Shown here in pieces: positions 31,997 through 46,680 of a DNA stretch of 64,000 nucleotides; the first letter of the stretch is position 1, and each line of letters starts with the position of its first letter. The stretch lies in NCBI GenBank assembly GCA_963798485.1, contig CAWCTR010000004.1, positions 224,001 through 288,000 of the forward strand. The letters run 5' to 3'. The notes beneath the pieces were generated by a model. It searched no databases. It had not been told where the DNA came from and was given only the letters and a program-made list of their open reading frames with translations. Source of the stretch: an uncultured delta proteobacterium. Lineage in GTDB: Bacteria > Desulfobacterota > Desulfomonilia > UBA1062. The position numbers and the translations under genes are program-made.

Positions 31997-32023
31997 TTGC
32001 CACCATATTAATTTACGTGCTAC
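31997..32023. promoter_or_regulatory. Weaker putative NikR operator upstream of the tonB-chelatase operon
   Basis: TTGCCAC-N13-GTGCTAC: identical right half-site and spacing; degenerate left half. Confidence 0.55.
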
Positions 32024-32359
32024 TCATACTGGAACATAATGGTAAGGATACATCATGTGTCAAATTATTAATGTCGATAAATGTTCACCCAGACAGTTAC
32101 GCCTGGTGCGGTTTTCTGGTATTACCATGGTATTTAAGAATCAGCATGCACCTCTCTTGTCACAGACAGGATATACTTTTCTGAGTGAACTATACAATAT
32201 TTCAAAAATTGCATTAAGGCGGACCTCAACACTTATCAACTCCATTCCGGCTGTCATACCAGTAGCTTTGCCAAGCTTGCCATGGGTGAACTGGTTCAAA
32301 ATACTTAGGTGTTCCGGCATGCCATGGCAGGCAGCTAAGCACTATTACTAAATGCATCC

Positions 32360-33070
32360 ATGGGGGCTATCATGCATAAACACATGTTGGTGCTCCCATG
32401 GTTTTTTTCCGTGAGTCTCCATGCCATGCTTTTAACATTTTGCGTACTCACTTTTAAGAAGATTGATCCAGAGATGAGTATCATTATGGTGAATCTCGAT
32501 GCTACACCCCGGGCGAGTGTTTCTGCTCATGCAAATACACCGGTTAAAGCGGTTCAGGTGATGATGCCCAAACGGAGAACGAGCAGAACCCAGCAACCAG
32601 ACCAAACACCTGTTGAGGAGGAACATAAACTGCTGGCTCCTGGAGTTGAAGTGGCTTCTCACCCTGATGCCGCCCCCACAAAGGACTTAGTTGTCAATGC
32701 ACCACAGCAGGATGGCCCTGGCGCAGATATTGGATCACCAGCCGGTGATACTAATGGACAATCGGAAAAAACTACCGATTTCCAATTCGGCGTTGCCAGT
32801 GGCCCAAAATTTGACTACCGCGTGCTGCCGGTATTTCCTCTGATCGCCAGGCGACTCGGCAAAGAGGGGCGCGTTGTGCTTCGCCTGACCATCGACGCCC
32901 AGGGACACCTCATTGATGTAGAGATTGTAGAGAAGGCAGGTTACGGGTTTACCGAGGCCGCGATCGATTCTGTCAGGCACTCTACCTTTCTGCCGGCTCA
33001 GGTGGGTGGACAGCCTGTTTCATCCCAGGCACTCCTTCCTATAAAGTTCGCGTTGCAGAAGGATGCGTAA
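32360..33070 (+). CDS. tonB: TonB energy transducer
   Basis: N-terminal SVSLH TM motif; C-terminal PVFPLIARRLGKEGRVVLRLTID...FLPA. Confidence 0.9.
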   Translation: MGAIMHKHMLVLPWFFSVSLHAMLLTFCVLTFKKIDPEMSIIMVNLDATPRASVSAHANTPVKAVQVMMPKRRTSRTQQPDQTPVEEEHKLLAPGVEVASHPDAAPTKDLVVNAPQQDGPGADIGSPAGDTNGQSEKTTDFQFGVASGPKFDYRVLPVFPLIARRLGKEGRVVLRLTIDAQGHLIDVEIVEKAGYGFTEAAIDSVRHSTFLPAQVGGQPVSSQALLPIKFALQKDA

Positions 33071-33110
33071 ATCCAGGCAGAAAAAGTACATTAAAACTTG
33101 GAGGTATTTT

Positions 33111-43640: not shown

Positions 43641-44647
43641 TTTTCCCCTTGAGTGCAATCGTGGGCCAGGAAGAGATGAAGACCGGTCTGATCGTCAACG
43701 TCATAGATCCATCCATTGGCGGGCTTCTGATCATGGGCGAAAAAGGCACAGCCAAGAGCACGGCGGTTCGAGCTCTTGCCGATCTTCTACCCGAGATGCA
43801 GTCTGTGGCAGACTGCCCCTTTTCCTGCAATCCTGATGATTTTCTATGTACCCGTTGCAGGAATGCAGCCGCTACCGGGGTTGGTCTTAAACGCTCAACT
43901 AAGCGCATGCGGGTGGTCGAACTACCGCTAGGTATCACCGAAGACCGGCTGGTGGGCACGCTCGATATCGAACATGCCATCCAGAAAGGAGAAAAACGCT
44001 TCGAGCCAGGACTCCTGGCAGAGGCCAACCGCAACTTCCTCTACGTGGACGAAGTCAATCTGCTGGAAGACCATATCGTGGATCTGCTGCTGGATTCGGC
44101 TGCAATGGGAGTCAACACGGTCGAGCGCGAAGGGGTCTCATTCACCCACCCGGCACGCTTCATCCTGGTGGGCACCATGAACCCCGAGGAGGGTGACTTA
44201 CGACCACAACTTCTGGACCGCTTCGGGTTATGCGTAAATGTACACGGGTTGACTGATAAGGCCTTGCGGGTGGAAATCCTCAAGCGTAAGGCTGCTTTCG
44301 ATGCCGATCTTGAAGCTTTTGCTCAGCAGTGGGTGGATGAGCAGACCCGGCTTGCAGAGCAGATCATTCACGCCCAGCAGCGACTGAAATCCCTTCCTGT
44401 AGGCGATGAAGTTCTGGAGCATATTGTGGATATCACCACGAGCTTAAATCTTGATGGCCATCGTGCGGACATCGTAATTATGAAGACCGCTCGGGCTTTG
44501 TGTGCATTGCGTGACAAGAAGGGCATTGATGGCGAGGACATCCGTGAGGCTGCTTCACTGGCATTGGGCCACCGCCTGAAGCGGCTGCCATTTGAGGAGA
44601 TGGGCGCAGGTGATGCCAAGCTGAAGAAAGTCCTGGCAGGAATATAA
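43637..44647 (+). CDS. Chelatase AAA+ ATPase subunit (ChlI/BchI-like)
   Basis: [52 protein letters not shown]...CTRC insert. Confidence 0.92.
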
Positions 44648-44700
44648 CCCTATGAGGACAACGGGAACGCCCAACGTAGTGAGCGAGGATACTCAGAACA

Positions 44701-46680
44701 ATGAACTTCACTGATTTCATCGGGCATGAGGATGCCAAACTGGCCCTCATCTTGAACGCCATTGATCTAAAATGCGGCGGAGTTCTCTTCATCGGGTCCA
44801 AGGGATGCGGAAAATCCTCGCTCGCCCGACTTCTGCCCGATATTCTTGACGCAGGGGCTCCTTTTGTCGAGCTGCCGCTGAACATCACCGAGGACTCCCT
44901 CTTGGGTGGCATCGCCCTCGAACAGACTATTGTCTCCGGTCAAAAAAAGCTGCAGCCGGGCATCTTAAGCCGCGTAAACGGCGGCGTACTGCATATCGAT
45001 GACGTAAATCTGCTTAATCTGGATATCATGGCCCATATCCTGGAGGTGCATGGCCGGGGTTCACAGGTGATCGAACGCGAGGGATTATCAGAACGATGTA
45101 CCTCACGATTCATCATTGTGGCCGGTATGAACCCGGAATCGGGAGCTCTTTCGCTCCACCTGCTGGACCGCTTCGGCCTGTGCGTTCTCTGGGAAACATT
45201 GAGCGATAAAGCAGAACGTATTGCCGTCATGAAGAGCTCAACTCCGACCCTTTGGCCTGCAAATAATGCGATAAAATCCAATCAATCCTATTTCATGAGA
45301 GCTATTCCACCAACTCCATCTATGCCTATCCCTCTCCAGCAAGAGGATAGAGTAAAAGATTCCCAACTCCAGCAAGGTTATCTGACCCGAGTCATTGGTA
45401 ATGATCTGGCTGCACTCAAGGCCAGGATAGCTGTGGCACGTTCAAGGCTGGAACACATTGTAATTAACGATACGATCCGTGCCTATATCGCCGAGCTTTG
45501 CCTAAGGGCTGCCATCAGCGGCCACCGGGGCGATATCCACTTGTTGTATGCTGCTCGGGCCTATGCAGCTTGGCAGGGGCAACCAGAAGTCAGCCAAACT
45601 GATGTAGATTCGGTAGTGCACCTGGTGCTAAGCCACCGGCAGCGGCATGTGACGGAACCTGAACATGAACATTCCCACCCCTCACTTAAGGATCAGCCAA
45701 ACAACGAGAAACAGGACCAGCAAGACCGAGAAAATGCGCCGCTGGAGGTGGCATCGCCGCAGGAGACTCAGCCTGATGACGCCACCCCCCTGGATACCAG
45801 CCCGCAGGAACGCCCATCTCATCCCCGCGAAGAGGTGCATGTTACGGGTGAGGTATTCAAGACCAGGCGCCTGGTATTTCGTAAGGACTGCATCAAGCGC
45901 AACTCTTCTGGCCGCCGTACAAAGACCATGAGTAAGGATATGGGTGGCCGGTACGTGAAAAGCACACCCCGAGGCAAACAGGACGTGGCCATCGACGCCA
46001 CGCTGCGCGCAGCAGCTCTGTTTCAGAGTGTACGCGGTCGGACAGGCCGGCTTATCATTAAGGAGGAAGACCTGCGGTACAAACAGCGTGAAAAACGGAT
46101 GGGCCATCTCGTGATCTTCGTAGTGGACGGTTCCGGTTCTATGGGCGCGAGAGCACGTATGAGCGCCGCTAAGGGTGCGGTGCAATCGCTGCTGGCAGAT
46201 TGCTACCAGCGCCGAGACAAGGTGGCCATGATCGTCTTCCGGAAGGACCGGGCCGAGGTCGTCCTCTCGCCTACCGCCAGTGTGGCGCTAGCCACCCGGA
46301 GGCTCACGGAAATTCCCGTAGGTGGTAAGACCCCGCTAGCCTCAGGTCTCTTGGAGGCCTATCGGCTTATCCAACGTGTGGCTATGAAATCCCCGGAAAC
46401 GCGTTTTTTGCTCACCCTTATCACGGATGGTCGCGCCAATCACGGTCTTGGTGAGGAAGATATGGCTCGGGAACTAGCTCAGCTCACCAATTTGCTTGCT
46501 CATGCACCGTCCGCAGACAGCATCGTGATCGACACTGAGGACAAGTCCGGCCTGATGCGTATGGATCTGGCCGCCGGACTCGCCGCACAGCTCCAGGCGG
46601 ATTATTATATCATCGATAGTTTGAAAGCCGATTACCTTGCCGGAATTGTGCAGATGAAAATGTCCGGCAAGGAGCAATAA
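44701..46680 (+). CDS. Chelatase ChlD/BchD-like subunit (AAA + vWA)
   Basis: GSKGCGKS, degenerate AAA, acidic/Pro linker, vWA MIDAS VVDGSGSM, GGKTPLA, ITDGRAN. Confidence 0.9.
   Translation: MNFTDFIGHEDAKLALILNAIDLKCGGVLFIGSKGCGKSSLARLLPDILDAGAPFVELPLNITEDSLLGGIALEQTIVSGQKKLQPGILSRVNGGVLHIDDVNLLNLDIMAHILEVHGRGSQVIEREGLSERCTSRFIIVAGMNPESGALSLHLLDRFGLCVLWETLSDKAERIAVMKSSTPTLWPANNAIKSNQSYFMRAIPPTPSMPIPLQQEDRVKDSQLQQGYLTRVIGNDLAALKARIAVARSRLEHIVINDTIRAYIAELCLRAAISGHRGDIHLLYAARAYAAWQGQPEVSQTDVDSVVHLVLSHRQRHVTEPEHEHSHPSLKDQPNNEKQDQQDRENAPLEVASPQETQPDDATPLDTSPQERPSHPREEVHVTGEVFKTRRLVFRKDCIKRNSSGRRTKTMSKDMGGRYVKSTPRGKQDVAIDATLRAAALFQSVRGRTGRLIIKEEDLRYKQREKRMGHLVIFVVDGSGSMGARARMSAAKGAVQSLLADCYQRRDKVAMIVFRKDRAEVVLSPTASVALATRRLTEIPVGGKTPLASGLLEAYRLIQRVAMKSPETRFLLTLITDGRANHGLGEEDMARELAQLTNLLAHAPSADSIVIDTEDKSGLMRMDLAAGLAAQLQADYYIIDSLKADYLAGIVQMKMSGKEQ

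Follow-up and report, generated by a model that had tools for sequence, protein, structure and literature searches.

The closest described relatives of the locus treated here are a nickel uptake system, a regulon and a family of chelatases. The Helicobacter system comprises a TonB-dependent receptor (FrpB4/NikH) and the importer NiuBDE; in PMC5140060, CeuE/NiuB of H. pylori is assigned to the nickel importer NiuBDE and FrpB4 is described as a NikR-repressed receptor. The NikR signal of delta-proteobacteria, including the reversed type of D. psychrophila, is given in Table 4 of Rodionov et al. (2004, PMC545781), where a nickel-free hydrogenase of D. desulfuricans is predicted to be under NikR and an unnamed two-gene cluster of D. 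psychrophila carries two perfect NikR sites; no chelatase or TonB-dependent system is among the targets listed in that paper. The chelatases include the ATP-dependent class I enzymes CobNST (cobalt, aerobic B12 pathway) and ChlHID/BchHID (magnesium), each with a full-length CobN/ChlH subunit, a ChlI AAA+ subunit and a ChlD AAA+-VWA subunit. Most CobN/ChlH homologues beyond B12 and chlorophyll synthesis are, according to the HmuS paper, without an assigned function. The same paper describes HmuS, encoded in the hmu operon of Bacteroides/Porphyromonas with HmuT, HmuU and HmuV as partners, as a membrane-anchored, periplasmic, NADH-dependent and ATP-independent protein without ChlI or ChlD, with Met-79 and His-254 as heme ligands; it has a Met-rich insertion, takes iron out of heme and sets a precedent for chelatase homologues working in reverse. 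BtuS, another CobN-like protein with a part in taking iron out of heme, is membrane-anchored as well and predicted to be periplasmic. Here we describe ten genes, tonB to chlD, in a 64,000-nucleotide stretch (the window, G000:C4:224001-288000) of the genome of an uncultured delta proteobacterium (4.3 Mb, 50.6% G+C, 97.5% complete). From comparisons of sequence, we lean slightly toward reading them as a NikR-repressed operon that takes up a nickel chelate and has an ATP-driven chelatase joined to it.

The ten genes lie on one strand, from the start of tonB at 32360 to the end of chlD at 46680, and are tightly packed, with neighbouring genes either overlapping by 4-11 nt or standing 3-53 nt apart:

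32360-33070, + strand: tonB (Pfam TonB_C, E-value: 4.8e-17)
33063-35330, + strand: TonB-dependent outer-membrane receptor (Pfam Plug and beta-barrel)
35345-36481, + strand: periplasmic binding protein, CeuE/NiuB-like (Pfam Peripla_BP_2; best solved relative 4ino/4ls3, E-value: 2.7e-37)
36471-37478, + strand: FecCD-type permease (Pfam FecCD, E-value: 4.3e-91)
37482-38258, + strand: importer ATPase (Pfam ABC_tran)
38255-39088, + strand: ABC-2 exporter ATPase, DrrA/NodI-like (TIGR01188, 284 bits, below the cut-off)
39085-39831, + strand: ABC-2 exporter permease (Pfam ABC2_membrane)
39846-43640, + strand: CobN/ChlH-family large chelatase subunit, soluble, 1264 aa (Pfam PF02514, 1215.7 bits)
43637-44647, + strand: ChlI-type AAA+ subunit (Pfam; TIGR02030, 425 bits, below the cut-off)
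44701-46680, + strand: ChlD-type subunit, AAA+ plus von Willebrand A domain (Pfam AAA_lid_2 and VWA_2)

A 520-bp AT-rich spacer separates this operon from nikR-nikMNQO on the opposite strand:

31423-31839, - strand: nikR, ribbon-helix-helix plus NikR_C nickel-binding domain (Pfam PF08753, E-value: 3.3e-34; NF003381, 198 bits, above the cut-off)
30558-31244, - strand: nikM, S component (Pfam CbiM, E-value: 5.4e-63; N-terminus MHIPDG)
30217-30561, - strand: nikN, PDGLE-domain component (Pfam PF13190)
29278-30216, - strand: nikQ, T component (Pfam CbiQ; TIGR02454)
28422-29432, - strand: nikO, ECF-transporter ATPase (Pfam ABC_tran)

An earlier note on this DNA, written from the sequence alone, had described ten co-oriented genes divergent from nikR-nikMNQO, and the open reading frames (ORFs), Pfam and NCBIfam bear this out. 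The receptor, Peripla_BP_2 binding protein, FecCD permease and ATPase are those of the Helicobacter system, as is NikR control, established for FrpB4 (PMC5140060) and predicted for the operon in the window. The Helicobacter system differs in lacking CobN-ChlI-ChlD and the ABC-2 exporter and in its operator sequences, while here all parts stand in one operon of an anaerobic member of the Desulfobacterota.

Three NikR-type operators were located in the window, the first of them in the leader of tonB, where it extends into the first hexamer of a promoter-like site (32012-32040):

31997-32023, no strand: TTGCCAC-catattaatttac-GTGCTAC (7-N13-7), tonB leader; rank 3 in the genome, 20.6 bits
28104-28130, no strand: ATAACAC-N13-GTGCTAC, start of hydA; rank 2 in the genome, 27.9 bits, 2 mismatches
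31316-31342, no strand: ATAACAC-N13-GTGCCAT, upstream of nikM (nikM1); rank 5 in the genome, 16.7 bits

Because the published consensus GTGTTAC-N13/14-GTAACAC, used in both orientations, gave mismatch counts at chance level in the window (with the tonB-leader site a weak match), the operator model was derived from a second nik locus and from other genomes. A generic inverted-repeat search yielded nothing useful. The second nikR-nikMNQO copy lies ~50 kb upstream, outside the window (the L003 region, G000:C4:202420-207064), and is 83% identical to the first in DNA, its NikR being 91% identical in protein; the genome accordingly encodes two NikR genes, of which one adjoins the tonB operon and is divergent from it. 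Upstream of nikM2 and beside nikR2 stands a perfect palindrome, GTAGCAC-aaatataaatatt-GTGCTAC, in the reversed arrangement published for D. psychrophila. This second locus also holds a 382-aa opposite-strand ORF between nikR2 and nikM2 and an 814-aa ORF beyond nikO2. A weight matrix trained only on six nikR/nikM-adjacent operators of other genomes was then scanned over the whole 4.3-Mb genome: the nikM2 palindrome came first (34.7 bits), followed by the sites at hydA and in the tonB leader, with nikM1 fifth. Sites of at least 16 bits number five in the genome, four of them in the nik loci; the sites ranked 4 and 6 lie upstream of no gene and were dropped. The NikR-like site that the earlier note had seen in the leader is the third best in the genome under an independent matrix. 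NikR control of the whole operon, and with it induction by nickel limitation, was also part of that note; as a prediction it is well supported in silico by the genome rank and by the conserved sites described below.

The second-ranked operator belongs to a unit of three genes that ends in a cytochrome b gene:

26771-28105, - strand: hydA, [FeFe]-hydrogenase large subunit (Pfam PF02906, E-value: 2.5e-82; TIGR02512, 460.6 bits, above the cut-off)
26379-26810, - strand: hydB, [FeFe]-hydrogenase small subunit (Pfam PF02256, E-value: 2.8e-18)
25698-26357, - strand: cytochrome b (Ni_hydr_CYTB), last gene of the hydA-hydB-cytochrome b unit (Pfam PF01292, E-value: 2.4e-17)

The [FeFe]-hydrogenase genes hydAB are likely members of the same NikR regulon, and the operator at hydA suggests a switch to a nickel-free hydrogenase when nickel is short. 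A hydrogenase switch under this operator is nickel logic. The 7-N13-7 palindrome and the targets nikMNQO and hydAB also agree with the delta-proteobacterial regulon of Rodionov et al. (2004). In alignment, NikR of the window shows H-x-H-x5-C. We take this to be the canonical nickel-site pattern of NikR, and the N-terminus of NikM is presumably of the nickel type; the NCBIfam label "cobalt transporter CbiM" for NikM does not separate nickel from cobalt and was not used.

Related loci were drawn from named genomes and from a 401-genome sample of the phylum. The closest named relatives for the cluster are metagenome-assembled genomes (MAGs) of Desulfomonilaceae, Syntrophaceae and Syntrophobacteraceae. 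A CobN match (E-value ≤ 1e-50) was found in 109 of the 401 sampled genomes. None turned up in the two other genomes searched from the genus or in the six from the family; the cluster is thus patchily distributed. Perfect copies of GTRRCAC-N13-GTGYYAC occur in 42 of the 401; as a reversed control pattern matches some two dozen genomes, perfect matches alone are no proof. Twelve loci with AT-rich spacers were examined, and six of these have a perfect site beside nikR and/or directly upstream of nikM; within the same set, exbBD, a TonB-dependent receptor gene and the gene for a [NiFe]-hydrogenase small subunit each have one site in front of them. In genomes of family f11 (G272, G325, G373 and others), the degenerate NikR pattern also picks up, by chance, GC-rich palindromes present in many copies, GTGGCACAGGCTTCCAGCCTGTGCCAC being one; these resemble a family of dispersed repeats.

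The association of operator and cluster emerges from 49 non-redundant related loci (842 kb). These contain 11 sites of at least 16 bits, all in or beside the cluster: ten stand no more than 250 bp upstream of cobN, tonB, the receptor gene or FecCD, and the eleventh directly follows chlD, ahead of a downstream receptor. Sites with at most one mismatch number 10 in 37 kb of cluster leaders versus 3 in the other 804 kb, counts that overstate the number of separate events, as the related genomes are not independent. The only two perfect sites of genome G131 precede cobN-chlI-chlD and an exbB-exbD-receptor-binding protein-FecCD-ATPase-ABC-2 pair, respectively, which indicates that chelatase and transporter, exporter included, share one control even when physically separated. 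NikR is encoded in all five genomes checked. In a FastTree tree of 44 CobN homologues (taken from the fetched loci only, with split cobN genes left out), all site-bearing loci fall into one well-supported clade of 32 rows, and none falls into the paralogous CobN clades at 33-36% identity. The split genes are those of Thermodesulfobacterium and relatives (L014, L015, L074, L075, L077 and L081-L085), in which the orthologous cobN is divided into adjacent ORFs of ~800 and ~490 residues. Among 43 non-redundant loci (those with a CobN at least 43% identical, loci below this being left out of the count), the cluster is accompanied by the receptor in 24, the binding protein in 26, FecCD in 27 and the ATPase in 28. 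Before the counts, L012, L052 and L076 were removed as redundant, as were tblastn hits whose query coverage fell short of a cut that varied between 30% and 50%. No regulators were found among the ten flanking ORFs of related clusters, and no tetrapyrrole or metallophore biosynthesis genes among their conserved extra downstream genes.

Solved receptors match that of the window only weakly and in the plug domain. The binding protein is informative about the cargo: its best match among solved structures is the nickel-binding protein of H. pylori (4ino/4inp/4ls3; 132 bits over residues 89-370, with the E-value listed above), followed by the next solved families at 1.2e-23; heme binders reach 41.7 bits and B12 binders 27 bits. 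CeuE/NiuB reportedly binds a Ni-histidine complex. With the FecCD-type permease and the ABC_tran ATPase encoded in the same operon, the transport half resembles systems already known for the uptake of nickel chelates rather than a tetrapyrrole importer, and we infer that nickel is the cargo. The earlier note had proposed import of a metallo-tetrapyrrole; the TonB-dependent receptor and the FecCD importer still point to the uptake of a metal complex, while a tetrapyrrole as the cargo does not sit well with a CeuE/NiuB-like binding protein. The same comparison lowers the standing of a fuller model in which a nickel tetrapyrrole (F430 of methanogens or sedimentary Ni-porphyrin) is imported, relieved of its nickel by CobN-ChlID at the expense of ATP and then, as an empty ring, exported by the ABC-2 pump. 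The predicted NikR control speaks for such a model. The model would also suit the tetrapyrrole-handling CobN/ChlH large subunits (PF02514), the reversed reaction of HmuS and the G131 arrangement, in which the exporter is under the same operator as the transporter genes. The named relatives among Syntrophaceae, Syntrophobacteraceae and Desulfomonilaceae are in keeping with it as well, these being groups that often live with methanogens. We know of no enzyme that strips nickel from F430, however, and the CobN of the window fails the HmuS features tested (see below). That F430 is the substrate, that the ring is exported and that the metal is removed rather than inserted can only be conjectured, and we regard the model as improbable.

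The chelatase itself appears to be complete. The large subunit, the only CobN-family match in the host genome, matches PF02514 end to end and keeps the consensus residue at every one of the 118 near-invariant positions in the alignment of 44 homologues. ChlI (AAA+) and ChlD (AAA+ plus VWA) complete a three-subunit class I set, and both have Walker A motifs at their N-termini. Against solved relatives, the large subunit scores 580 and 509 bits with CobN proteins, 483 with ChlH and 347 with HmuS, the weakest of the full-length matches. It passes NF004646, "cobaltochelatase subunit CobN" (1668.5; cut-off 1468), but neither the CobN equivalog TIGR02257 (743.8; cut-off 822.05) nor the BchH equivalog TIGR02025 (777.4; cut-off 829); here PDB and NCBIfam scores take the place of a phylogeny anchored on named CobN, ChlH and HmuS proteins. 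The large subunit differs from the chelatases of CobNST and ChlHID in its equivalog scores, and further in the lack of a B12 riboswitch and of corrin-synthesis markers, in its predicted NikR control and in having its genes fused into a metal-uptake operon.

The earlier note had drawn on HmuS as an analogy, which proved weak. Like HmuS and BtuS, the window CobN is encoded with a TonB-dependent receptor in an operon induced by shortage of the metal concerned, as is predicted for the window. Unlike them, it is soluble, has ChlI and ChlD (both intact) as partners and stands behind an inner-membrane importer. No hydrophobic segment was found at either end of its 1264 residues and no Met-rich insert (at most 5 Met per 60-residue window; Met 2.8% of residues). 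A DUF2162/ExbB-like/DUF2149 operon type was seen only with a riboswitch-controlled CobN paralogue of G106, not with the window CobN. These features bear on whether the operon harvests iron from heme as in Bacteroidota HmuS/BtuS, a reading that the CobN-like large subunit and the best NCBIfam match of the receptor, a heme/hemoglobin receptor subfamily reached below the cut-off (213.5; cut-off 316.85), might invite. The large subunit is the wrong kind for it, though, and the leader has a NikR-type operator in place of a Fur box. Fur control was rejected, the best leader match having 6 mismatches of 18, with 2115 such sites genome-wide. Heme-iron harvesting is highly improbable.

Its solubility, its use of ATP, its place after an inner-membrane importer and its predicted response to nickel starvation suggest that the chelatase handles the imported complex in the cytoplasm. 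In the mechanism that we propose, NikR would leave the operator at 31997-32023 when nickel is scarce and the ten genes would be transcribed together. TonB and the outer-membrane receptor would bring a nickel complex into the periplasm, and the CeuE/NiuB-like binding protein, the FecCD permease and its ATPase would carry it into the cytoplasm; this uptake part would work like FrpB4/NikH plus NiuBDE of Helicobacter. The soluble CobN-ChlI-ChlD would then act on the cargo with ATP. As to the reaction and its direction, our guess is that nickel would most likely be released from a tightly bound, possibly macrocyclic, chelator, and as to the exporter, that the ABC-2 pump would return the emptied ligand, or a by-product, to the outside. 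On physiological grounds, freeing nickel from a strong chelator would be the best fit; on those of known enzymology, insertion would.

Insertion is the core of a different proposal, in which CobN-ChlID would be a biosynthetic nickel chelatase that puts scarce nickel into a tetrapyrrole or other macrocycle, so as to make a nickel cofactor, or else a carrier sent out of the cell and taken up again. According to the HmuS paper, all characterised ChlI/ChlD-driven enzymes insert metals, and CobN homologues of methanogens were once proposed as nickel chelatases (PMC3087415); the retained Walker A motifs and the unbroken set of near-invariant CobN residues would suit such an enzyme. Building a nickel sink during nickel starvation is, however, hard to rationalise, and no tetrapyrrole-modifying genes are conserved beside the cluster. 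Nor, to our knowledge, does any enzyme of these bacteria use a nickel tetrapyrrole. We consider this proposal distinctly unlikely.

Several observations weigh against a NikR-repressed operon for nickel-chelate uptake with an attached chelatase. The tonB-leader site has 3 mismatches to the local perfect palindrome and 2 to the degenerate GTRRCAC-N13-GTGYYAC, and it sits 337 nt before tonB. Strong sites are confined to 11 of the 49 related loci and missing from entire sub-clades, the Syntrophobacteraceae loci among them. The ABC-2 pair accompanies only 12 of the 43 loci. In the synteny of nikR, which the earlier note had proposed to survey, the operator accompanies the cluster much more widely than the gene does: an intact nikR is adjacent in only 1 of the 43. 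The direct linkage in L013 nevertheless speaks for the NikR reading, as does L005, from a Syntrophaceae MAG, where the same place, between the NikR-like site and tonB (1190-1430), is taken by what is left of a nikR gene decayed by an internal deletion and a stop. The proposed direction of the reaction is also at odds with the HmuS paper, according to which ATP-driven class I chelatases insert metals and the sole proven dechelatase of the family needs no ATP. Finally, according to PMC5140060, NiuBDE carries cobalt too; the same operator precedes metE, downstream of a B12 riboswitch, in G106 and G071; and a riboswitch-controlled binding protein of G106 is 49.7% identical to that of the window.

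The metE operator and cobalt transport by NiuBDE fit a cobalt/B12 reading, in which cobalt or a metal-free or incomplete corrinoid would be imported, CobN-ChlID would be a cobaltochelatase, the name that automatic annotation would give it, and NikR would serve joint nickel and cobalt homeostasis. The metE genes in question, for the B12-independent methionine synthase, are at G106:C1:497638-498000 (L126) and G071:C132:21101-21526 (L127), and each leader has a cobalamin riboswitch, a terminator-like hairpin (by eye) and a promoter overlapped by the NikR-type palindrome just before the start codon, an arrangement that would place metE under dual B12 and nickel-type control. The related binding protein is encoded at G106:C1:1650000-1653314 (L125 9987-13315), where, right after chlD of the NikR-type cluster, a cobalamin riboswitch is followed by a second receptor and this protein; L125 may thus hold two forms of a single uptake family, one for nickel and one for cobalt. 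The passing of NF004646 and the place of CobN proteins as best solved relatives of the chelatase subunit also speak for cobalt, while the TIGR02257 score below its cut-off speaks against it, as does the presumed nickel-site pattern in NikR.

The riboswitches themselves argue in the same direction as these last points. No cobalamin riboswitch was found with Rfam at the gathering score over the window, at E-values ≤ 10 over 31700-32500, or in 12 related loci (L004-L015); the earlier note had recognised none in the leader, and the scan of 31700-32500 agrees with it. The single cobalamin riboswitch of the genome precedes a different receptor, and in G163 one precedes a CbiM-like gene. In G106 (C1:1149104-1155900, L155), one is followed by a 1337-aa CobN paralogue, DUF2162, ExbB-like, DUF2149 and CbiK genes, in what looks like an operon of the hmu/BtuS type, so that within one genome a BtuS/HmuS-type CobN paralogue is under a riboswitch and the window-type CobN under a NikR-type operator. 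As riboswitches in these genomes serve other B12/cobalt genes, B12 control appears to be separate from the cluster. CbiK, CbiX and CbiD have no match in the 97.5%-complete host genome, which makes a role in de novo B12 synthesis unlikely; the host seems to make no corrin rings, and there would be no home-made corrin ring to metalate. The earlier note was also right that B12 and chlorophyll biosynthesis genes are absent nearby, with none among the genes annotated within 25.7-51.5 kb. In view of both sides, we consider the cobalt/B12 reading unlikely.

Some features of the surroundings deserve mention. The 337-nt leader between the operator and tonB (32040-32360) contains a terminator-like hairpin at 32155-32171 and a doubtful ORF, and an extra layer of control is possible there:

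32055-32351, + strand: orf98, doubtful ORF in the 337-nt tonB leader (no Pfam or NCBIfam match)

No tblastn homologue of orf98 was found in the 12 related loci L004-L015. Just past the chelatase cluster, at 48672-51472, are VirB11-like and TraG/VirD4-type conjugation genes. The chelatase cluster has a G+C content of 54-59%, compared with the genome-wide value of 50.6%, and may possibly have been acquired horizontally. Elsewhere in the window there are a low-G+C stretch (38-40%) at 8000-12000 and a tRNA gene at 61405-61476.

A NikR-controlled CobN/ChlID-receptor cluster was not found described in the literature searched, although an earlier mention, for example in RegPrecise, is possible. The uptake half is of a known kind; it is the fusion of CobN-ChlID and an ABC-2 exporter to nickel-type uptake under NikR that is undescribed in that literature. 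Sulfate reducers and syntrophs have large nickel needs, and nickel is poorly available in sulfidic habitats. The locus would extend their nickel-starvation response beyond nikMNQO and the hydrogenase switch, and its predicted place in the NikR regulon gives an orphan CobN/ChlH clade a concrete, testable metal link. If the chelatase frees nickel from a strong natural chelator, it would represent a new way for cells to acquire nickel, as well as the second instance of a chelatase homologue used for metal harvesting. More tentatively, and with more doubt than confidence, we propose that the soluble CobN-ChlID clade of Desulfobacterota and neighbouring phyla is a nickel-starvation enzyme acting with ATP on a macrocyclic ligand delivered by a NiuBDE-like importer, with nickel either taken out of the ligand or put into it. 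If this is true and a nickel tetrapyrrole, for instance F430, proves to be the ligand, then syntrophic bacteria would be drawing nickel from a cofactor of the methanogens they live with.

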